DNA from: a virus
Taxonomy: Duplodnaviria; Heunggongvirae; Uroviricota; Caudoviricetes
Strand: one strand, 5' to 3'
Length of the DNA stretch: 22,328 nt
IMG/VR virus record: IMGVR_UViG_648861009_000003
Shown here: one piece after another, positions 1,392 through 18,619 of the stretch
Position numbering within the stretch: position 1 is the first letter of the stretch
Layout: every line of letters begins with the position of its first letter
Notes under the pieces: model-generated
The model's input: only the letters and a program-made list of their open reading frames with translations
Database searches by the model: none
Told to the model about the DNA's origin: nothing
Translations under genes and position numbers: made by a program

Positions 1392-1641
1392 GGTTACCTC
1401 TGCTTTTTGAACGCATGTCACGTAACTTCTTAATGTGTTCTGCCGTTTCGATCTCTTCTGCTATCCGATCTGCATCAGCTTTATTCACAGGTTCAAAGTC
1501 ATGATTAAAGCGGAACATGCTGGCGATACATGTTCTGCCTTTTCGGATGTAGTGAACTTTGTTGTGGGTAGAACGCAGGATTTTGCAGGGAGTGCCGTGG
1601 TGGTCGACGTACCAGGTGTTAGGAAAAATGATTCTGAACAT
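1363..1641 (-). CDS. Hypothetical early-left protein (92 aa)
   Basis: ORF in early-left orientation between xis and the zinc-finger gene; overlaps the xis start by 29 nt; no family recognised. Confidence 0.4.
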   Translation of the reverse strand: MFRIIFPNTWYVDHHGTPCKILRSTHNKVHYIRKGRTCIASMFRFNHDFEPVNKADADRIAEEIETAEHIKKLRDMRSKSRGNHGIIQPHTR

Positions 1642-1688
1642 TTTTACACCTCAGTTGGACGATGTTGAAATTTGCTGCTTTGAGGCCA

Positions 1689-1907
1689 TCATAGTCCCCA
1701 TTGTTTGTTCTTAAGTTCGATCTCCTCCTGGCAACTTGCACAAGTCCGACAACCCTGAACAGCCAGGCGTCTTCGCTCATCTATCGGATCGCCACACTCA
1801 CAACAATGAGTTGCGGATACAGTCTGGTAGTTCAGACGACGCATTTTTATTGCTGTATTGCGCTGTAATTCTTCGATTTCTGATGCTGAATCAATGATGT
1901 CTGCCAT
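1689..1907 (-). CDS. TraR/DksA-family C4 zinc-finger protein
   Basis: 72 aa with CxxC-x17-CxxC (CCECGDPIDERRRLAVQGCRTCASC), typical of the small phage TraR/DksA-like proteins found near xis in lambdoid phages. Confidence 0.8.
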   Translation of the reverse strand: MADIIDSASEIEELQRNTAIKMRRLNYQTVSATHCCECGDPIDERRRLAVQGCRTCASCQEEIELKNKQWGL

Positions 1908-1999
1908 CTTCCATTAATCCCTGAATTGTTGGTTAATACGCTTGAGGATGAATGCGAACAATAAAAAAGGAGCCTGTAGCTCCCTGATGATTTTGCTTT

Positions 2000-2221
2000 T
2001 CATGTTAACCGTTCCTTAAAGACGCCGTTTAACATGCCGATCGCCAGGCTTAAATGAGTCGGTGTGAATCCCATCAGCGTTACCGTTTCACGGTGCTTCT
2101 TCAGTACGCTACGGCAAATGTCATCGACGTTTTTATCCGGAAACTGCTGTCTGGCTTTTTTGATTTCAGAATTAGCCTGACGGGCAATGCTGCGAAGGGC
2201 GTTTTCCTGCTGAGGTGTCAT
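2000..2221 (-). CDS. Hypothetical protein (73 aa from MTPQQENAL...)
   Basis: ORF in the xis-to-exo accessory region on the early-left strand; start chosen at the internal ATG (2219-2221); no family recognised. Confidence 0.4.
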   Translation of the reverse strand: MTPQQENALRSIARQANSEIKKARQQFPDKNVDDICRSVLKKHRETVTLMGFTPTHLSLAIGMLNGVFKERLT

Positions 2222-2297
2222 TGAACAAGTCCCATGTCGGCAAGCATAAGCACACAGAATATGAAGCCCGCTGCCAGAAAAATGCATTCCGTGGCTG

Positions 2298-2489
2298 TCA
2301 TACCGGGTCTCTCTCATCTGCTTCTGCTTTCGCCACCATCATTTCCAGCTTTTGTGAAAGGGATGCGGCTAACGTATGAAATTCTTCGTCTGTTTCTACT
2401 GGTATTGGCACAAACCTGACTCCAATTTGAGCAAGGCTATGTGCCATCTCAATACTCGTTCTTAACTCAACAGGAGATGCTTTGTGCAT
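2298..2489 (-). CDS. Hypothetical protein (63 aa)
   Basis: Small early-left ORF between exo and xis, the position of the lambda ea/orf genes; no family recognised. Confidence 0.35.
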   Translation of the reverse strand: MHKASPVELRTSIEMAHSLAQIGVRFVPIPVETDEEFHTLAASLSQKLEMMVAKAEADERDPV

Positions 2490-2650
2490 ACCGCCTCCCG
2501 TTTATTATTTATCTTCTCAGCCAGCCGCTGTGCTTTCAGGGGATTTCTGATAACAGAAAGGCCGGGAAATACCCAGCCTCGCTTTGTAATGGAGTAGACG
2601 AAAGTGATCGCGCCTACCCGGATATTATCGTGAGGATGCGTCATCGCCAT
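2462..2650 (-). CDS. Hypothetical protein (62 aa)
   Basis: Small ORF immediately downstream of exo on the same strand, overlapping the exo 3' end by 10 nt and the next ORF by 28 nt; uncertain. Confidence 0.3.
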
Positions 2651-3321
2651 TGCTCCCCAAATACAAAACCAATTTCAGCCAGTGCCTCGTCCATTTTTTC
2701 GATGAACTCCGGCACCATCTCGTCAAAACTCGCCATGTAATTTTCATCCCGCTCAACCACGACATAATGCAGGCCTTCACGCTTCATTCGTGGGTCATAG
2801 TTGGCAAAGTACCAGGCATCTTTTCGCGTCACCCACATGCTGTACTGCACCTGGGCCATGTAAGCCGACTTTATGGCCTCGAAACCACCGAGCCGGAATT
2901 TCATGAAATCCCGGGAGGTAAACGGGCATTTCAGTTCAAGGCCGTTGCCGTCACTGCATAAACCATCGGGAGAGCAGGCGGTGCGCATACTTTCGTCGCG
3001 ATAGATGATCGGGGATTCAGTAACATTCACGCCGGAAGTAAACTCAAACAGGGCTCTGGCGTCGTTCTCGTACTGTTTTCCCCAGGCCAGCGCCTTAGCA
3101 TTAACTTCCGGAGCCACACCGGTGCAAACCTCAGCCAGCAGGGTGTGGAAGTAGGACATTTTCATGTCAGGCCACTTCTTTCCTGAGCGGGGCTTTGCTA
3201 TCACGTTGTGAACTTCTGAAGCGGTGATGACGCCGAGCCGTAATTTGTGCCATGCATCATCCCCCTGTTCGACAGCTCTCACGTCGATCCCGGTACGCTG
3301 CAGGATAATGTCCGGTGTCAT
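2641..3321 (-). CDS. exo: Lambda exonuclease (Red alpha)
   Basis: 226-aa translation [50 protein letters not shown]... is near-identical to lambda Exo as I recall it; start overlaps the bet stop (ATGA). Confidence 0.96.
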
Positions 3322-4103
3322 GCTGCCACCTTCTGCTCAGTGGCTTTCTGTTTCAGGAATCCAAGAGCTTTCACTGCTTCGGCCTGTGTCAGTTCTGACG
3401 ATGCGCGAATGTCGCGGCGAAATATCTGGGAACAGAGCGGCAATAAGTCGTCATCCCATGTTTTATCCAGGGCGATCAGCAGAGTGTTAATCTCCTGCAT
3501 GGTTTCATCGTTAACCGGAGTGATGTCGCGTTCCGGCTGACGTTCTGCAGTGTATGCGGTATTTTCGACAATGCGCTCGGCTTCATCCTTGTCATAGATA
3601 CCAGCAAATCCGAAGGCCAGACGGGCACACTGAATCATGGCTTTATGACGTAACATCCGTTTGGGATGCGACTGCCACGGTCCGGTGATTTCTCTGCCTT
3701 CGCGGGTTTTGAATGGTTCGCGGCGGCATTCATCCATCCACTCGGTAACGCAGATCGGATGATTGCGGTCCTTGCGGTAAATCCGGCATGTGCAGGATTC
3801 ATTGTCCTGCTCAAAGTCCATACCATCAAACTGCTGGTTTTCATTGATGATGCGGGACCAGCCATCAACGCCCACCACCGGAACGATGCCATTCTGCTTA
3901 TCAGGAAAGGCGTAAATTTCTTTCGTCCATGGATTAAGGCCGTACTGGTTGGCAACGATCAGTAATGCGATGAACTGCGCATCGCTGGCATCACCTTTAA
4001 ATGCCGTCTGGCGAAGAGTGGTGATCAGTTCCTGTGGGTCGACAGAATCCATGCCGACACGTTCAGCCAGCTTCCCTGCCAGCGTTGCGAGTGCTGTACT
4101 CAT
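3318..4103 (-). CDS. bet: Recombination protein Bet (Red beta, single-strand annealing)
   Basis: 261-aa translation [66 protein letters not shown]... matches lambda Beta. Confidence 0.96.
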
Positions 4104-4108
4104 CCGTT

Positions 4109-4368
4109 TTATACCTCTGAATCAATATCAACCTGGTGGTGAGCAATGGTTTCAACCATGTACCGGATGTGTTCTGCCATGCGCTCCTGAAACTCAACAT
4201 CGTCATCAAACGCACGGGTAATGGCTTTTTTGCTGGCCCCGTGGCGTTGCAAATGATCGATGCATAGCGATTCAAACAGGTGCTGGGGCAGGCCTTTTTC
4301 CATGTCGTCTGCCAGTTCTGCCTCTTTCTCTTTCACGGGTCGATCTGCTGGTAGTGACGCGCCCAGCT
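4109..4368 (-). CDS. gam: gam, 3' portion (copy A) abutting the N-gap; 5' end corrupted by indels
   Basis: Translation ...[74 protein letters not shown] matches the lambda Gam C-terminus; the last ~40 nt before the gap carry extra bases relative to copy B. Confidence 0.75.
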
Positions 4369-4814
4369 NNNNNNNNNNNNNNNNNNNNNNNNNNNNNNNN
4401 NNNNNNNNNNNNNNNNNNNNNNNNNNNNNNNNNNNNNNNNNNNNNNNNNNNNNNNNNNNNNNNNNNNNNNNNNNNNNNNNNNNNNNNNNNNNNNNNNNNN
4501 NNNNNNNNNNNNNNNNNNNNNNNNNNNNNNNNNNNNNNNNNNNNNNNNNNNNNNNNNNNNNNNNNNNNNNNNNNNNNNNNNNNNNNNNNNNNNNNNNNNN
4601 NNNNNNNNNNNNNNNNNNNNNNNNNNNNNNNNNNNNNNNNNNNNNNNNNNNNNNNNNNNNNNNNNNNNNNNNNNNNNNNNNNNNNNNNNNNNNNNNNNNN
4701 NNNNNNNNNNNNNNNNNNNNNNNNNNNNNNNNNNNNNNNNNNNNNNNNNNNNNNNNNNNNNNNNNNNNNNNNNNNNNNNNNNNNNNNNNNNNNNNNNNNN
4801 NNNNNNNNNNNNNN
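4369..4814. other. Run of 446 N (assembly/scaffold gap)
   Basis: Contiguous N characters; both flanks are copies of the same gam sequence. Confidence 0.95.
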
Positions 4815-5111
4815 CCGTTTATACCTCTGAATCAATATCAACCTGGTGTGAAGCAATGGTTTCAACCATGTACCGGATGTGTTCTGCCATGCGCTCCTGA
4901 AACTCACATCGTCATCAACGCACGGGTAATGGCTTTTTGCTGGCCCGTGGCGTTGCAAATGATCGATGCATAGCGATTCAAACAGGTGCTGGGGCAGGCC
5001 TTTTTCCATGTCGTCTGCCAGTTCTGCCTCTTTCTCTTCACGGGCGATCTGCTGGTAGTGACGCGCCCAGCTCTGAGCCTCAAGACGATCCTGAATGTAA
5101 TAAGCGTTCAT
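4815..5111 (-). CDS. gam: gam, copy B: intact start ([34 protein letters not shown]...) but 3' part frameshifted by single-base deletions near the gap
   Basis: The N-terminal 56 aa match short-form lambda Gam; downstream the sequence is the same as 4105..4368 but with at least 6 one-base deletions. No in-frame upstream ATG for a long Gam form. Confidence 0.75.
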
Positions 5112-5186
5112 GGCTGAACTCCTGAAAATGGCTGTGAAAAAATCGCCCGCGGAATGCCAGGCTGATTCGGAAAACAGGAAAGGGGA

Positions 5187-5477
5187 TTAGTGATTCAGAC
5201 CGTTGCCGCGTCCGTCGAGAAAAACTTCCACGAGCAAGTCACGGGTATAAGTGCGCTCAATGCCGCGATGCAGATAAAGTCGTCCGCGTAAATTAGCTGA
5301 TGCAGTCCAGGTACCATCTTTGCGTTTGACCAGCATTCCTGGCATGACCGCACCGCGATTAACGGTCTGCGTTCCGTAATGTTGATGAACCATAAAAACT
5401 CCTGCCCGTAAGCTGGGCTGCTGAACATATAAAGACTTCTGCGCGTATTCAGGCGGTGGATGGCCGCCGGTTGTCAT
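5187..5477 (-). CDS. Hypothetical early-left protein (96 aa), first ORF downstream of the putative pL
   Basis: ORF on the early-left strand upstream of gam, in the kil/cIII position; no family recognised; start codon uncertain (internal Met at MVHQHYG or MPGMLVK possible). Confidence 0.3.
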   Translation of the reverse strand: MTTGGHPPPEYAQKSLYVQQPSLRAGVFMVHQHYGTQTVNRGAVMPGMLVKRKDGTWTASANLRGRLYLHRGIERTYTRDLLVEVFLDGRGNGLNH

Positions 5478-5644
5478 AACTAAGCCGCCTCGTTGAAGCG
5501 ACTAAGGTATGAAATGTTGAGTTGATTTCAGCTGGTCACACCGACGTTCACGCGTCCGTTTCATCCCTCGCACTCCCCGAAGCCTGCTGAAATTCAAGCT
5601 GCGGATCTAAGCGGTCATCGCAACGGTGAATCAGGTAGTTGCCG

Positions 5645-5750
5645 TATCGTTGTGTTGTTGCGATGAACTTATTTAAAACTATAGTTGTTTTATCGTCAAC
5701 AACAAAAGTTGTTTTATTGGTTGTTTTAGATATAACTGGTTGTATTTAGG
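5645..5750 (-). promoter_or_regulatory. Candidate oL/pL operator-promoter region
   Basis: Cluster of TGGTTGT(T)/AACAAC motifs (5652-5660, 5683-5690, 5699-5704, 5708-5714, 5719-5726, 5738-5745) resembling the inverted half-sites in the cI-cro intergenic region. Confidence 0.35.
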
Positions 5751-5837
5751 ATGGATTTATTTTGTGACTTGAATCGCATAGCGATAACTGAAGCGAGGTT
5801 ATGGTGGTTTTTTTAACGGTGTGTGTGATGAGGGGAG

Positions 5838-5867
5838 GGCAAAAGAAAACCCGGCACGGTGGCCGGG
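5838..5867 (-). terminator. Rho-independent terminator downstream of the accessory operon
   Basis: Minus-strand RNA would form the GC-rich hairpin cccggccaccgtgccggg followed by ttttctttt, 8 nt after the stop of the 310-aa gene. Confidence 0.55.
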
Positions 5868-5875
5868 TAGCATCA

Positions 5876-6808
5876 CTATTCGATTTTTTTAACCATGTAG
5901 TTACGTCGTGATGTTCCTAATCTTTCATTGTGAATCTCAGAAACGCTTACTACGAGCGATATTCGTTCACCAACTTTATATTTACTTTGAATTTCTCCTA
6001 ACATATCAATCGGATAAGAAGCCTTTATTTTTCCAAGCTCGCTTGCAATCTCCAATTTCCCGTACATGGATAAAATAGCAAGTTCGCCTGATATATGCTC
6101 ATCCGGTAGCTGAATGACCTTCGTTAAAGCTAAGCGAGCATTCAGTTTTTTTATATCTTCTGAAGAAATTGACACTTGTCTGGTACCATCACTTAAAGGT
6201 CCAATCCAAGTAAGATCAAAGTTAAGACTATATTTTTCGCACTCATTTATGATGTTTTTTAGGTTAGCTGTTGATTGCGAACCAATTTCGGCAATTTTAG
6301 CCGTGAATGTTTCTTCATCAATGGATGAGAGTAGTGCAAAAATCTCCTTAACAGCATGACTGGATACTGTTTCGATGAGCTCGCAAGAACCAGTAGAAAA
6401 AGTAACACCTAACTTCGTCGAACCTGGACGCAAGTCTGCCAATCTCATGTCTAATGATTTTTTAACATCAATCGGCACACGACTAGAATCTTTCCCAGAT
6501 CCAAGTCGGTAAACTGCTTTCTGTACAAGGGATGCGAGATTACCTGAAATTACAGATAGAATATCTAACGGAATAGACCCGAAATCGACCAAAACACCTT
6601 TTAATCTCAACTCCATGAAATCACGTAAAGGATGTTGGTTATCGATTGCACGTTGTCTCTCTCGGAGATCGCTCAGATGGGAGTCAAGTGATCTAAATAT
6701 AATGTCATCAGCAAATGATCTCCCCTTATTTTGAGCAAGCAGATCCACATCGCGTTGAATGAACGCAATTCGCTCCTTGAGGGAGTTGAATGTTTTTTCT
6801 TCGCTCAT
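5876..6808 (-). CDS. Unknown 310-aa protein, second gene of the repressor-linked accessory operon
   Basis: Long ORF with no family recognised; start overlaps the upstream NTase-like gene by 4 nt (ATGA), implying translational coupling; contains R-x4-H (RSLDSH) and R-x5-H (RAIDNQH) strings that are too common to count as evidence of HEPN. Confidence 0.75.
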   Translation of the reverse strand: MSEEKTFNSLKERIAFIQRDVDLLAQNKGRSFADDIIFRSLDSHLSDLRERQRAIDNQHPLRDFMELRLKGVLVDFGSIPLDILSVISGNLASLVQKAVYRLGSGKDSSRVPIDVKKSLDMRLADLRPGSTKLGVTFSTGSCELIETVSSHAVKEIFALLSSIDEETFTAKIAEIGSQSTANLKNIINECEKYSLNFDLTWIGPLSDGTRQVSISSEDIKKLNARLALTKVIQLPDEHISGELAILSMYGKLEIASELGKIKASYPIDMLGEIQSKYKVGERISLVVSVSEIHNERLGTSRRNYMVKKIE

Positions 6809-7278
6809 AACATTACCCTCACGAGGCCTTTAGGATTCTCCTTCCGATCAAAACCAAACCACCCTCTCCAGTAACTTCGCCTTTCACTATAATCGATTTC
6901 TGGATGATTTTCAGGCAGCAAAAGAACGTCAATGCTGTAGTTTTCTTTAATAAAATCTCTATTTAACAATGAGCTGACCAATGGCATCAGCGTGTTTGGC
7001 AAAGAGTTTAGGGCCAAATAATCGACGACCACGAGTATATCTATGTCATCAGGTTCAGGTTTCTCTGTAGTGAATGAACCATCGATCCACACTTCAGAGA
7101 AACATAGACACTGCTGATTAACAAGTTTAAATTGCTCAATAAGCTGTATAAAATTACAGTATAGCATACTTCTTCTAACGGATTTTGGGAAGGTGTCGAC
7201 ACAAAGAGACTTGATGCCATCACTATCCATATCATGAAATCCTGCTGTAAGAAGAGGTGGGAAGCTAGGCTTTTCCAT
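6805..7278 (-). CDS. Minimal pol-beta-type nucleotidyltransferase-like protein (157 aa)
   Basis: Motif VWIDGSFTTEKPEPDDIDILVVVD fits the GS-x9-DxD signature of minimal nucleotidyltransferases, with a further acidic residue in YSIDVLLLPE; lies 81 nt downstream of the repressor gene on the same strand. Confidence 0.7.
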   Translation of the reverse strand: MEKPSFPPLLTAGFHDMDSDGIKSLCVDTFPKSVRRSMLYCNFIQLIEQFKLVNQQCLCFSEVWIDGSFTTEKPEPDDIDILVVVDYLALNSLPNTLMPLVSSLLNRDFIKENYSIDVLLLPENHPEIDYSERRSYWRGWFGFDRKENPKGLVRVML

Positions 7279-7359
7279 CCTAAGTCCTTGTTTATGCCAT
7301 ATAGTGTTCTATTTAATATTCTTGAAAAGAGTGTGCCTTAAAAAGCTACAGGCTAATTA

Positions 7360-8049
7360 TTAACCATGCTTCCTGTACGTCTGCGGCATGCTCCCAATAA
7401 CCTTACCGAAGATGAACACCCGGTTCATCTCGTCTTTCTCGATCGGGTCCCACGGTGAGTAGCTTTTGTTATCAGAGATGACCAGCAGCTTATCCTTCAT
7501 CATTTGCAGGCGCTTTACATGGGCTGTGTCGTCGTACAGAAACGCATAGATACCATCACCGTCGAAAGATTTAACTGTGATATCAACGAACAGCAGATCA
7601 CCTGGTTCGATCGTTCCTGACATGCTGTCACCACGCACGTTAATGATGCGGATATTTTCCGCCTTCCTACCATCGAACATGTGACGAGCATCGTCAAACG
7701 AGTACTCAACCGAGCGTAGAACTTCTACAAACTCACGGTTGATGACTCCCGGCCCAGCACTGACTTCTATATCAAGAACGTCAATCTTGAAGTATTTGGA
7801 ATGGCTGACAGTTGATTGTATTGGTTGCACTGTACTGTCTGACATATTTCCAACGCCAGAAGATAACCATTCTGCGCGCACACCCAAAGCGTTCGCGATC
7901 TCCACGATTTTAGTTGTTTGATTAGCTTTCCCTGTTTCGATTTTCTGAATAGCAGCCTGGCTAACCCCGACCAAATCCCCAAGCGCCTTTTGTGTAAGGC
8001 CTCGCGCTAATCTGGCTTCTTTAAGTCTTTCTGAGAGTGTTGTTTTCAT
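7360..8049 (-). CDS. cI: CI-like prophage repressor (HTH_XRE N-terminal domain plus S24 LexA-like peptidase domain)
   Basis: Start taken at MKTTLSERLKEARLARGLTQKALGDLVGVSQAAIQKIETGK (HTH); C-terminal ...INVRGDSMSGTIEPGDLLFVD...HVKRL carries the S24 Ser/Lys autocleavage motifs; divergent from the cro-like gene. Confidence 0.9.
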   Translation of the reverse strand: MKTTLSERLKEARLARGLTQKALGDLVGVSQAAIQKIETGKANQTTKIVEIANALGVRAEWLSSGVGNMSDSTVQPIQSTVSHSKYFKIDVLDIEVSAGPGVINREFVEVLRSVEYSFDDARHMFDGRKAENIRIINVRGDSMSGTIEPGDLLFVDITVKSFDGDGIYAFLYDDTAHVKRLQMMKDKLLVISDNKSYSPWDPIEKDEMNRVFIFGKVIGSMPQTYRKHG

Positions 8050-8054
8050 AGTCC

Positions 8055-8153
8055 AAATGTACAACCAAGGTTTTATTCCATCAAACGAAAATGGTTGTTG
8101 ACTAAAAACAACCATAGTTTTAATCTTGATTCAAATTAACCACGGAGGTTGTT
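8055..8153. promoter_or_regulatory. Candidate oR/pR/pRM region between cI and cro
   Basis: Divergent intergenic region containing the inverted repeat ATGGTTGTT-N7-AACAACCAT (8091..8115) and a further ACAACCA half-site (8061..8067). Confidence 0.5.
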
Positions 8154-11254: not shown

Positions 11255-12756
11255 TTAAATTGCATCTGCAAACTCTGGGGTTTTTCGCTCAGGTATAATT
11301 GATGAGTTGCTGTTGTCACTTTTTTTATTTTCATGATTACGAATAGCCAATGACTCATTAAAGTCTTTTGCGACTGCTGTCTCAATAAATTCAATTTCTG
11401 AATCAGAGTGTTTTTTAACAGCTTCTTTGATCTCATCCAGAGTAACATAGAAAAACTCTTTTCTACGATTTACAAGATTGACTCTCTTTTTATCGAAGAC
11501 ATCATGTAGTTTTTTTCTAATGATGGAGCGTCCTCCGAATAAATCATGGCATGTACATCAAAAATAAAAGGAACAGATGCATCACCGAGCTCATTTACAC
11601 GGTCTTGCGGATCAAGACGTCGTGTCATGCCTATTTTATAAACATTCTCCCCAAAAGAACCTATGTTCGAAATAATATAAACATGACCTTGTTTGGTTTG
11701 TTGTGCCATGGATAATGCTCTTTGATGCTTTGATTCAGCCTGCGACAAACTCTGTTCTAGTTCGGCAATGCGATTTTCGAGGCGCTGCTTCATGTCACCA
11801 GTAACTTTTTCCATTTCCTTTCTTGCAGCTTCAATTGCTTTTTTATAACGGCGCTCTTCTGCCTCTGCGTCTTGCATGGCCTTTTCTATTTCTCGTTGTG
11901 CACGCTCCTCCTCTCTCATTTGTGCCCTTATTTCTGCCTGTTCTTCTTTTTCTTTCTGTTTTTGCTCACGATATTCATGGGTAAGCCACAATTCCTCAAG
12001 TTTTTTATTGAGGTATTTAGTGTTTATATATATGTGATTTTGCTCGTTTAGTTTATTTATGGCCTCAAATGCCTTTGTGATGCGTTCTTCCATTTTAGTG
12101 ATGTTTTTCCACGTGCAATTGCTAATTGCAGCATCACATTCATTATTAAATGCTCTAGTAGTTAGCCTGATATTTCTGTCTGTCATTTTTTTACCCTCTG
12201 CTCGAGAGCCTTCAACAGTCCATTGGGTTGTACAATATACTGCGCCAGAGTGGGTTTTATCCCGCAGCATTAATTTCTGTTCATCCCTGATGGATTTTAT
12301 TTTGTTTTTAAATTGCTCTGAATCTTCAAAATTAAAATGAGGTTCGTAAAATCCTAGTTCGGCTAGCTCAACATCTTCTGAATAAATAGAAATTTGCCTT
12401 ACTAGTTTATCATATATTTCTTTCTTCTCTTTATAAGTTCTTCTTAGCTCTTGGATTTGTTTATTGATACCATCCATTTTTTCAATGGTGTTTGTTAGTT
12501 CATTATTGGCATTTTCTTTTACTTTTAGGGATTCTTCTTTTATTATGGAGCATTCTTGCTCTGTTTTCTCAATAAGCTTCTTACATTCTTCTTCTACATT
12601 AAAATAATCTGCAAAGCGAGATTTGTATTCTTCATTTTTTTGATTGCTATCACTTAATTCTAATTGTATTTTTTTGATGCGTTTGATTGCAGCTATATAA
12701 AGAACAAGAACAACCAATAAAAATATGATTGCAAGTAATAGAGGAGTTTGAGTCAT
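11255..12756 (-). CDS. DUF4041/T5orf172 (GIY-YIG-like)-family protein with N-terminal TM helix and long coiled-coil; reading frame broken at a T7 homopolymer (11510..11516)
   Basis: The 428-aa ORF (11470..12756) contains GHVYIISNIGSFGENVYKIGMTRRLDPQDRVNELGDASVPFIFDVHAMIYSEDAPSL; the family-typical C-terminus LHDVFDKKRVNLVNRRKEFFYVTLDEIKEAVKKH... continues in the -1 frame to a stop at 11255. N-terminus LLLAIIFLLVVLVLYIAAI is hydrophobic; the gene is strongly AT-rich. Confidence 0.75.
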
Positions 12757-13246: not shown

Positions 13247-13568
13247 TTGTAACTGTTGTAGCAGCTATGGATGTGATCATCATGGTGTCCATTTACTGGG
13301 GTTGACGACATGATTTATCCGGCGCTATATTCTGTGCGTTGCCGCAAAATCGGCACACGGGATTGGCGTCCCGGGATACTACTCAACGCATACCGCGTTA
13401 AGCGGTTTTTTTGTGCGCTAAGCACGGCTATGCCCAAATTATGGTGGGCTGTGTGAGGGCTTCTTCGGAAGCGCCGGGTTTGAGTAGCCGGTTACGCCAA
13501 CCTTACACAGTTCACCACCAGTCGATTGGCGTCGTTGGTGGTGATGGTTAACCTGATGAGGTGATACT

Positions 13569-14177
13569 ATGACTACTCAATTAGCATTCCACAAAACGAC
13601 GTTTACCCCGATTTGCCACAATAACAGAATTTGGCTTACTGCCACTGAAGTTGGTTTAGCACTGGAATATGCGGACGATAAAGCAGTTCAGCGCATTTAC
13701 TCTCGGCACTCAGATGAATTCACAGATATGATGACAAGGGTGGTCAAAGTGACCACCCCTCGTGGAATGCAGGAGTCTCGAGTATTTAGCCTTCGCGGAG
13801 CCCATTTGATCGCCATGTTTGCTCGTACTCCTGTGGCCAAAGAATTCCGCCGCTGGGTTCTGGATATTCTCGATCGAGAAGTTCAACAATCCCCAATCAC
13901 AAAACAATTCACTGATAACGAACTTTGCACACTCGCCTGGTTATGGCGAGCAAGTGATACGATGTTAACCGCCTGCCAGAACGTTACGCCCCTTCTTCAG
14001 GTCGCAGAGCATCGCGAAGCAGGTAGATTCACTTCAATCGAACAAGAATATCCTCGGATACTCAACAGGGCGCGAGAAATCCTTGCCAGAGAAACGGCGC
14101 ATGTAAAATTCCAACCGTGGCAGGATGATAAGTGGAGTCGTGTGTTACCATATTTCCGTCAGAATCTGTTGCAATAA
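13569..14177 (+). CDS. Bro-N / P22 AR N-terminal domain protein (Roi/antirepressor-like)
   Basis: 202 aa; N-terminal IWLTATEVGLALEYADDKAVQRIYSRH...SRVFSLRGAHLIAMFARTPVAKEFRRWVLDIL fits the Bro-N/AntA-type domain pattern. Confidence 0.75.
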   Translation: MTTQLAFHKTTFTPICHNNRIWLTATEVGLALEYADDKAVQRIYSRHSDEFTDMMTRVVKVTTPRGMQESRVFSLRGAHLIAMFARTPVAKEFRRWVLDILDREVQQSPITKQFTDNELCTLAWLWRASDTMLTACQNVTPLLQVAEHREAGRFTSIEQEYPRILNRAREILARETAHVKFQPWQDDKWSRVLPYFRQNLLQ

Positions 14178-16383: not shown

Positions 16384-16878
16384 TGTTTGAGTTTAATATN
16401 NNNNNNNNNNNNNNNNNNNNNNNNNNNNNNNNNNNNNNNNNNNNNNNNNNNNNNNNNNNNNNNNNNNNNNNNNNNNNNNNNNNNNNNNNNNNNNNNNNNN
16501 NNNNNNNNNNNNNNNNNNNNNNNNNNNNNNNNNNNNNNNNNNNNNNNNNNNNNNNNNNNNNNNNNNNNNNNNNNNNNNNNNNNNNNNNNNNNNNNNNNNN
16601 NNNNNNNNNNNNNNNNNNNNNNNNNNNNNNNNNNNNNNNNNNNNNNNNNNNNNNNNNNNNNNNNNNNNNNNNNNNNNNNNNNNNNNNNNNNNNNNNNNNN
16701 NNNNNNNNNNNNNNNNNNNNNNNNNNNNNNNNNNNNNNNNNNNNNNNNNNNNNNNNNNNNAGAACTTCTTCGCCACCGCTGGGGGCGTCTGCGCTTATAT
16801 CGTTTCCCCGGCTCTGTTTTGACCGATTACCGAATACTGAAGAATTACGCCAAAACACTGACAGGAGCAGGAGTATGA
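16380..16878 (+). CDS. ylcG: ylcG-like small gene split by the N-gap (5' part 16380..16399, 3' part 16761..16878)
   Basis: The 5' flank encodes MMFEFN and the 3' flank encodes [38 protein letters not shown]; joined by about 3 nt they would reconstitute a 46-aa protein matching DLP12 YlcG as I recall it. Confidence 0.6.
16400..16760. other. Run of 361 N (assembly/scaffold gap)
   Basis: Contiguous N characters; the flanks are the two halves of ylcG. Confidence 0.95.
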
Positions 16879-17536: not shown

Positions 17537-18619
17537 TTAGAACTGGTAAACCAGACCTACAGCAACGATGTCATCAGTATCAATACCAGCTGTTTTGGTA
17601 AACTTACTATCGTCAATTAAGTTGATTTTGTAATCAACAAAAGTGGACATGTTTTTATTAAAGTAGTAAGTAGCACCGACATCGACATACTTGACTAAGT
17701 CTCGGTCACCATGAACACCAAGGTCTTTACCTTTTGACTGAAGGTAAGCAACAGATGGGCGCAGACCGAAGTCAAACTGATATTGTGCTACTGCTTCAAA
17801 GTTTTGTGCTTTGTTTGCAATATGGTTATTACCAAAAACGGTCATATTCTGAGTTTCAGAATATGTGGTAGCCAGATAGATATTGTTCGCATCATATTTC
17901 AGGCCTGCAGCCCATACTTCCGCATTTTTGCCGGAGGCATTGAATTTGCTCTTACCATAGGCGACCTGACCGTCAGTGCGATCTGATTTAGCATAGGTTG
18001 CACCCACGCCGAATCCTTCATACTCATAAGTAGTGGAGAAACCGAAACCATCACCATTGGCTTCAGTTACGTCAGTGCGGTCATTTTTACCCTGATACTG
18101 AGCAGCAAAGTTCAGGCCATCGACCAGACCAAAGAAGTCGTTGTTACGATAAGTTGCAACACCAGTAGTGCGACCAGTCATGAACACATCTGTTTGGGTC
18201 CAGGTATCACCACCGAATTCTGGCAGGACGTCAGTCCACGCACCGATGTCGTATGCTACACCGTAGTTACGGCCGTAATCGATTGAGCCGTAATCACCAA
18301 ATTTCAGGCCTGCAAATGCAAGACGGGTTTTGTCTTTGGAAGAACCTTGAGATTCAGCGCGGTTGCCTTTGAATTCATATTCCCACTGACCGAAACCAGT
18401 CAGTTGATCGTTGATTTGGGTTTCACCTTTGAAGCCAAGACGGGCATAAGTAGTATCACCATCATCTGCATCATTAGAGGAGAAGTAGTGCTTAGCATTA
18501 ACTTTCCCGTACAGATCCAGCTTGTTACTGTCTTTATTATAAATTTCAGCTGCCTGAGCAGACATCGCCATCAGTACTGATGCAGCTACAGCAGAAATTG
18601 CCACTGTTAATTTTTTCAT
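17537..18619 (-). CDS. nmpC: Outer-membrane porin NmpC/Lc (OmpC/OmpF/PhoE family), prophage moron
   Basis: 360 aa with a signal peptide ([23 protein letters not shown]), AEIYNKD...LDLYGK start and C-terminal ...VAVGLVYQF, typical of general porins; located between Q and the lysis genes as in DLP12 and PA-2. Confidence 0.95.

Follow-up and report, generated by a model that had tools for sequence, protein, structure and literature searches.

A nucleotidyltransferase gene pair, candidate system PDC-M63, in the repressor-downstream slot of an Escherichia coli lambda-like prophage

Directly behind the repressor of an Escherichia coli lambda-like prophage lies a strictly paired, autonomous cassette of two genes that is real and well delimited. 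The pair is PDC-M63, a candidate system of the PADLOC collection, and is thus uncharacterised but not undescribed. Its first gene (A) encodes what appears to be a divergent minimal pol-beta nucleotidyltransferase with an intact predicted catalytic set, and its second gene (B) encodes a protein whose C-terminus is modelled as an OB fold and whose family alignment points to a near-invariant Gly-Ser. We propose that the pair may be a two-protein conflict module of the anti-phage or abortive-infection type, expressed in the lysogen, with nucleotidylation of B by A as its specific mechanism, and we give this reading a probability of roughly one in three. The evidence that the cassette is a single exchangeable unit is laid out below, followed by the readings of its function.

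Layout and boundaries of the cassette

The window, the whole stretch of DNA that was analysed, is 22,328 nucleotides long (IMG/VR record IMGVR_UViG_648861009_000003). The genes flanking the pair are lambdoid, with int, exo, bet, gam and kil on the left and cro, a YdaT/cII-like gene, O, P and ren on the right. A 1.6-kb region holding the pair is 99.6% identical to Escherichia phage PhiR30_1 and 100% identical in the prophages of many E. coli genomes; in strain 118UI, the prophage sits at a tRNA-Arg gene and adjoins fimZ. The features of the locus are as follows.

7360..8049, minus strand: CI/LexA-type prophage repressor with a helix-turn-helix (HTH) and an S24 autopeptidase (Pfam, RefSeq call, identity to phage cI)
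7279..7359, minus strand: spacer of 81 bp from the repressor stop to the start of A (sequence)
6805..7278, minus strand: gene A, 157-aa minimal pol-beta-fold nucleotidyltransferase, DUF6932, PDC-M63A (Pfam, PADLOC)
6805..6808, minus strand: stop codon of A overlapping the start codon of B as ATGA, coupling their translation (sequence)
5876..6808, minus strand: gene B, 310-aa partner, PDC-M63B, no Pfam family (PADLOC)
5839..5868, minus strand: intrinsic terminator closing the repressor-A-B unit, left cassette boundary (scan and conservation)
5868..7357, no strand assigned: exchangeable cassette of A, B and spacers (BLASTN against phages with the same repressor)

Read from the sequence, the minus-strand order is CI-type repressor, 81-bp spacer, A, B and a strong terminator. 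The repressor reading frame is open over 7360-8115 on the minus strand, matches the Pfam models HTH_3 (6.5e-13) and Peptidase_S24 (1.5e-18), and is 99.5% identical to the cI of phages PhiR34_1 and PhiR5_1. The true start is probably 8049 (MKTTL) and not 8115. In strain 118UI, RefSeq places a 690-nt S24 peptidase gene that uses the MKTTL start at the repressor position, and in the window an operator-like palindrome (8091-8115) contains the upstream ATG of the frame. Between the repressor and A, the spacer carries an AAGGA ribosome-binding site, and a terminator scan predicted no minus-strand terminator within it, so read-through from the repressor promoter into A and B is likely. A promoter scan gave no support for an internal promoter, with 7 sigma-70-like sites against 6.9 in the shuffled expectation. 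About 8 nt before the overlap that joins A to B there is a GAGG ribosome-binding site, and the unit is closed by a terminator whose stem (5868..5849, minus strand) has 7 pairs, 6 of them G-C, and is followed by TTTCTTTT (tail TTTCTTTTGC). The G+C content of the pair is 38-41%, against 47-55% in the flanks.

These observations confirm the features given in the preliminary description of this DNA, which had placed a translationally coupled pair, more AT-rich than its surroundings, directly after a CI-like repressor on the same strand and before a strong terminator. The ATGA overlap is seen in the sequence, both repressor domains were matched, the scan found the stem with its tail, and the base composition agrees. 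The same description had likened the position to the rexAB slot, and the pair is indeed flanked by the repressor on one side and the early-left region on the other, which is the place of rexAB in lambda.

Comparison with phages that carry the same repressor sets the limits of the cassette. By BLASTN, homology to PhiR34_1 and PhiR5_1 stops at the base of the terminator (5867/5868), and the other homology end among same-repressor phages is 7358, the repressor stop codon; with alternative cargo between these points, the cassette spans 5868-7357, and its limits are exact. In PhiR34_1 the cassette is replaced by 119 bp without a gene, in PhiR5_1 a HipA-like pair occupies the slot, and in Lambda_4C10 two other genes are found there. 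The 68 bp at the terminator end (5800-5867) are conserved in many lambdoid phages and have matches in 1,829 E. coli genomes. The repressor-downstream slot is therefore a true exchange point with variable cargo, in agreement with the earlier proposal of a coupled two-gene module in such a slot, and the cassette is dispensable for the phage. The cassette is small (1.5 kb) and clean-edged. PhiR34_1, with the same repressor and an empty slot, offers a natural isogenic control.

The two proteins and their pairing

Protein A matches the Pfam family DUF6932 (4.1e-26), while pol-beta nucleotidyltransferase models fall below threshold, and in PADLOC its residues 1-156 align with positions 1-148 of the 152 in the PDC-M63A model PDLC04744 (E 7.4e-43). 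The defining motifs of a minimal nucleotidyltransferase (MNT), namely hG[GS], DxD and a third acidic residue, are all present. In the 35 family members compared, no substitution occurs at D66-G67-S68, D78 or D80, and at least 90% keep D117; G13 and R36 are further invariant positions, and a basic and aromatic C-terminal motif, RSYWRGWFGFDR..PKG, is strongly conserved. The structure model of A is very confident (pLDDT 96), and its best solved folds are all of the pol-beta type: the MNT antitoxins from HEPN-MNT pairs, among them AMPylating proteins of the MntA type, as well as HI0073, aminoglycoside and lincosamide nucleotidyltransferases and CD-NTases. The low scores of these fold matches indicate that A is a divergent branch, and the profile of A found only noise among all solved chains, with none at E <= 10. 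Motif conservation, Pfam and fold matches thus agree with the preliminary assignment of A as a minimal pol-beta nucleotidyltransferase.

Protein B has no Pfam or NCBIfam family, and its profile, like that of A, found only noise among all solved chains. It matches six PDC-M63B models in PADLOC (best E 4e-42, residues 25-309), and both proteins also match PHROGs of unknown function. A full-database search with the B profile returned 279 cluster representatives; among the 150 matches listed, nearly all are about 300-360 aa long apart from fragments, and no fusions occur. In an alignment of 114 diverse members, S130 is the only invariant residue, 113 of the 114 have G129, and 101 have T or S at position 131; E/D63, R68, G77, R122, G176 and W201 are also highly conserved. 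A Pfam scan of the same 114 members gave no recurrent family and no recognisable effector domain.

The model of B is mediocre (pLDDT 68), with long N-terminal helices over residues ~10-56 and a C-terminal OB fold over ~229-309 that fold matching assigns to the single-stranded-DNA-binding type. Residues 60-148, the middle region that holds G129-S130, fall below a pLDDT of 50, and this poor modelling follows from a prediction made before the deep B alignment. B also weakly matches the PADLOC models PDC-M32A and PDC-M02B (E ~0.005-0.01), which may be noise from the helical region. Two other assignments were considered and rejected. As a HEPN protein, B fails on its best aligned R-x4-6-H column pair, which occurs in only 10.5% of the 114 members, and HEPN Pfam models match 1 member each (E 0.005-0.016); the earlier reluctance to call B a HEPN protein is upheld, and the fold match is to an OB fold. 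An internal duplication of 'LRL-G-x-GS' elements received a profile-profile probability of 7%, which is not significant.

A protein pair of this make-up brings to mind the Hailong system, in which the constitutive product of a nucleotidyltransferase restrains the partner. Under such a reading, A would make a nucleotide or short oligonucleotide that is bound by the OB fold of B, and phage nucleases or nucleotide depletion would free B. The appearance of A as an active minimal nucleotidyltransferase and the modelled single-stranded-DNA-binding-type fold at the end of B would suit this arrangement. However, the OB region of B shows no conspicuous conservation of the aromatic and basic residues that DNA-binding OB surfaces typically carry, and B has no convincing membrane segment, unlike the transmembrane ion channel HalA; its highest Kyte-Doolittle mean over 19 residues is 1.54, and the segment concerned is amphipathic. 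A also has no sequence relation to a solved chain at E <= 10, and Hailong does not appear by name among the fold matches listed, where the filing name of HalB is uncertain. We regard a Hailong-like mechanism as quite improbable.

The association of A with B was followed from both sides, with the A profile used for species genomes and a closer B alignment for viral contigs. Relatives of A occur in 212 of 185,579 species genomes, and the 80 best loci were analysed. These come from Pseudomonadota, Bacteroidota, Nitrospirota, Acidobacteriota, Planctomycetota, Verrucomicrobiota, Desulfobacterota, Bacillota, Mycoplasmatota and Parcubacteria. A B-family reading frame lies directly downstream on the same strand in 79 of 79 testable loci (at the 80th the contig ends), and from the B side, A lies directly upstream in 56 of 56 testable viral loci. 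Among 5,426 complete E. coli genomes, 98 carry both genes at 99% identity or more, one carries a diverged pair (72% and 66% nucleotide identity, in a Rac-like prophage behind a different HTH repressor) and none carries a single gene. The pair is thus present in 99 genomes (1.8%), among them strains in wide use such as NC101, and the genes co-occur in all 99 genomes that carry either. Distant B partners are homologous (30% identity in Pseudoalteromonas, 25% in Bermanella), and gene calls show the same 4-bp overlap in Pseudoalteromonas, Bermanella, Psychroserpens and one metagenomic relative. The co-occurrence that the preliminary description had asked about is therefore strict in all three data sets.

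Selection and divergence tell of a single unit. A and B have median dN/dS values of 0.09 and 0.06, and each gene has hundreds of homologues, which together argue that neither is a chance reading frame; both genes are under strong purifying selection. In the viral loci, the same-strand reading frame just upstream of the pair was examined in 42 cases, of which 33 carry HTH_3 and 29 an S24 domain, and these upstream repressors fall into at least 14 clusters. Pairwise divergence of A correlates with that of B (r = 0.89) far more closely than with that of the repressor (r = 0.21), and 46 locus pairs combine unrelated repressors with B proteins that share at least 95% identity. To judge from these comparisons, A and B form one mobile unit that reassorts among at least 14 repressor (immunity) types.

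Where the pair looks damaged, B is the gene affected. Beside an intact A, B is short or frameshifted at about 9 of the 79 A-seeded loci; one viral locus has a frameshifted B, and no B-seeded locus has a damaged A. This loss pattern hints weakly that B is the partner that carries the cost, in a comparison confounded by gene length, draft assemblies and the different seeding, where a short B may also be a divergent variant or an assembly error. The pattern bears on the opposite assignment of roles, in which A would be a toxic effector resembling MenT or AbiEii that nucleotidylates tRNA or other RNA when released, and B a sensor or antitoxin that would detect phage nucleic acid by means of its OB fold. 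Nucleotidyltransferase toxins of this superfamily do exist, MenT and AbiEii being examples, and the conserved C-terminal motif of A could bind nucleic acid. Yet A has no match to AbiEii or DUF1814 models, and both the nucleotidyltransferase-first gene order and the finding of B shortened beside an intact A, never the reverse, fit a harmless A. Toxicity of A seems to us very doubtful.

Published record, genomic context and proposed function

The preliminary description had called the module undescribed, and this part of it falls, as both proteins match the models of a published candidate. PDC systems were collected by 'guilt-by-embedding', from genes nested in BREX, DISARM and type I RM systems, and PDC-M63 is among the 145 untested candidates released (10.1101/2024.01.29.577857). 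In the one published test found, deletion of PDC-M63AB from a prophage of E. coli NILS69 left the infectivity of 10 virulent dsDNA phages unchanged, and the authors themselves acknowledged that the phage panel was narrow (10.1101/2024.12.20.629700). The defence or toxin-antitoxin function that the preliminary description had put forward stays a candidate function. Our search of the literature on DUF6932, the RefSeq accessions and the PhiR phages yielded no functional study beyond these two PADLOC-related papers. What this analysis adds is the precise delimitation of the cassette together with a naturally empty slot as control, the linkage of the pair to repressors of at least 14 immunity types, figures for its pairing in many phyla, and the modelled OB fold and invariant Gly-Ser of B.

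Outside enterobacterial prophages, loci were inspected one by one, and the 148 nearest reading frames in 74 genome loci were surveyed with Pfam and PADLOC. One locus has a Tn3/mer element, and close by are a GmrSD-like gene and a RecD-like helicase; at another it accompanies a Lit-type peptidase U49 and DUF6933, and at a third a NACHT/STAND NTPase stands directly upstream of it. AbiE, YoeB-YefM and a DUF3427 helicase are neighbours at one further locus, and a small island carries an integrase at smpB, once together with an Mrr-type nuclease. In the survey, the nearest reading frames are mostly unrelated and ordinary or mobile, with HTH_3 in 8, IS1 in 4 and integrase in 2, and known defence genes are scattered among them, with one occurrence each of a type IIG RM, PD-T7-4, HEC-01A, AbiEi and PDC-S02. 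Enrichment in defence islands is therefore modest, as judged from the top-family counts that the survey yields. Overall, the context favours a mobile conflict module.

Alternatively, the pair might have nothing to do with defence and ride in the repressor operon as a selfish module for addiction or stabilisation, or as an accessory regulator of the lysis-lysogeny switch. The consistent position just downstream of diverse repressors, the negative defence test in the native host and the occurrence of the pair beside integrases and IS elements are all in keeping with this. On the other hand, the pair also turns up where there is no repressor, across many phyla and beyond prophages, which argues for a function independent of the phage switch, and PhiR34_1, which has the same repressor and lacks the cassette, was deposited as an isolated phage. 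We consider a role outside defence unlikely.

For the reading that we prefer, a conflict module in which A nucleotidylates B or controls it in some other way, the closest precedent for a nucleotidyltransferase placed first and its partner second is MntA-HepT, and the proposal is drawn from it. MntA AMPylates HepT and silences it. By analogy, A and B would share the transcript of the repressor in the lysogen, with translational coupling supplying them in fixed proportion. A would then use an NTP to modify B covalently and hold it inactive, with the invariant S130 or the adjacent T131 as the most plausible candidate acceptor. Infection would interrupt the control exerted by A, or would supply a nucleic-acid ligand for the OB fold, and the freed B would block phage or host nucleic-acid transactions. 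Within this scheme, the direction of control, with A restraining B, and the acceptor site are guesses.

A more far-reaching reading would make PDC-M63 an anti-phage system of a new mechanistic type, in which the DUF6932 protein A nucleotidylates the OB-fold protein B at or near its Gly-Ser, or makes the ligand of B, and thereby arms a sensor-effector for phage single-stranded nucleic acid or its processing. Such a system would act mainly on temperate or other phages outside the published panel and would be a recurrent cargo of the rexAB-equivalent slot in enterobacterial prophages. We hold this reading to be doubtful.

Comparison with known systems

With PDC-M63 itself, the agreement in gene order, in sizes and in full-length matches to both proteins identifies the pair as the same entity, and a PADLOC scan of the pair returned no match other than PDC models. 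The pair falls outside CBASS, which is recognised by a CD-NTase of about 300 aa together with a recognised effector. AbiE (AbiEi/AbiEii) and MenAT share with it the logic of a two-gene abortive-infection or toxin-antitoxin system that contains a nucleotidyltransferase, but A is much smaller than theirs, and neither AbiEii/DUF1814 nor AbiEi models match the pair at E <= 1 in Pfam or PADLOC. Hailong is alike in having two genes, a small nucleotidyltransferase and a partner possibly binding nucleic acid; gene order and families differ, as does the membrane topology of the partner noted above. With HEPN-MNT, AbiE/MenAT, CBASS and Hailong, the molecular feature in common is confined to the nucleotidyltransferase fold.

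The likeness to lambda rexAB is one of position, downstream of the repressor, on the same strand and closed off by a terminator ahead of the early-left genes. RexB crosses the membrane several times, in contrast to what is predicted for B, and PADLOC gave no RexA or RexB match, so that the likeness is positional only. BstA of BTP1 and the HipA-like pair of PhiR5_1 occupy the same position in the repressor operon, with presumably similar expression.

The nearest likeness in design is to the type VII toxin-antitoxin pair MntA-HepT, with its small pol-beta nucleotidyltransferase encoded first and coupled to a partner, and the solved folds nearest to A include the MNT antitoxins of such pairs. The difference lies in B, which has no conserved HEPN motif, and the preliminary view that this is neither a standard MNT/HEPN nor an AbiE pair stands, as PADLOC made no such match. 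If the pair functions in defence, it would add a design of nucleotidyltransferase plus OB fold to the known immune and toxin-antitoxin modules, and would put a name to one recurrent cargo of the repressor-downstream slot that holds rexAB in lambda.

Alternative cargo downstream of the repressor

Two phages with the same CI-type repressor carry other genes in the slot that the A/B pair (the DUF6932 nucleotidyltransferase and its 310-aa partner) occupies in this prophage.

PhiR5_1 locus (L010), 3603-5176: HipA-like kinase pair
Lambda_4C10 locus (L011), 3568-4984: unannotated two-gene module (353 aa and 125 aa)
Psychroserpens locus (L006), 1511-3112: A/B pair, then genes for a Lit-type peptidase U49 and for a DUF6933 protein

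The Lambda_4C10 module is unrelated to the HipA-like pair, the slot being common to both, and the two are further candidates for lysogen-expressed cargo. In Psychroserpens, the DUF6933 product may be another conflict-system protein; its Pfam number is adjacent to that of DUF6932, the family of gene A.

Probable operators and the early-left region

Window 8091-8115: perfect palindrome with 9-bp arms, ATGGTTGTTGACTAAAAACAACCAT, between repressor and cro
Window 4369-4814, also 16400-16760: one run of N each

Half-sites similar to this palindrome (AACAAC/GTTGTT) recur at ~5690-5760, left of the terminator, and together these elements are probably the operators of the prophage's immunity type. From the putative early-left promoter region to kil (5100-5840), no N-like antiterminator gene is evident, and the 96-aa ORF at 5187-5477 is without a family match. 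A gam-like reading frame stands on either side of the 4369-4814 run, with duplicated sequence; this resembles a gap in the assembly whose flanks are repeated, not a biological feature.

Other prophage genes, including a PD-Lambda-1 homologue

Window 17537-18619 (-): full-length OmpC-type porin gene (Porin_1, 1.9e-151)
Window 13340-13522 (+): Rfam matches to isrK, an Hfq-binding RNA (58.7 bits), and to C4 antisense RNA (74.8 bits)
Window 13569-14177: Bro-N/P22_AR_C antirepressor-like ORF
Window 11470-12756, on to about 11258 (-): PD-Lambda-1 homologue (PADLOC 7.7e-169; Pfam DUF4041 and MUG113)

The porin, placed within the late region, is a cargo gene and could alter receptor availability. Both RNA matches lie immediately upstream of the antirepressor-like ORF. 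The nin region of the prophage that carries the A/B pair also houses a homologue of PD-Lambda-1, a validated defence gene. Against the intact 500-aa allele of E. coli 118UI, a frameshift near residue 413-415 splits this homologue. Either the gene is a pseudogene or the draft assembly is in error here.
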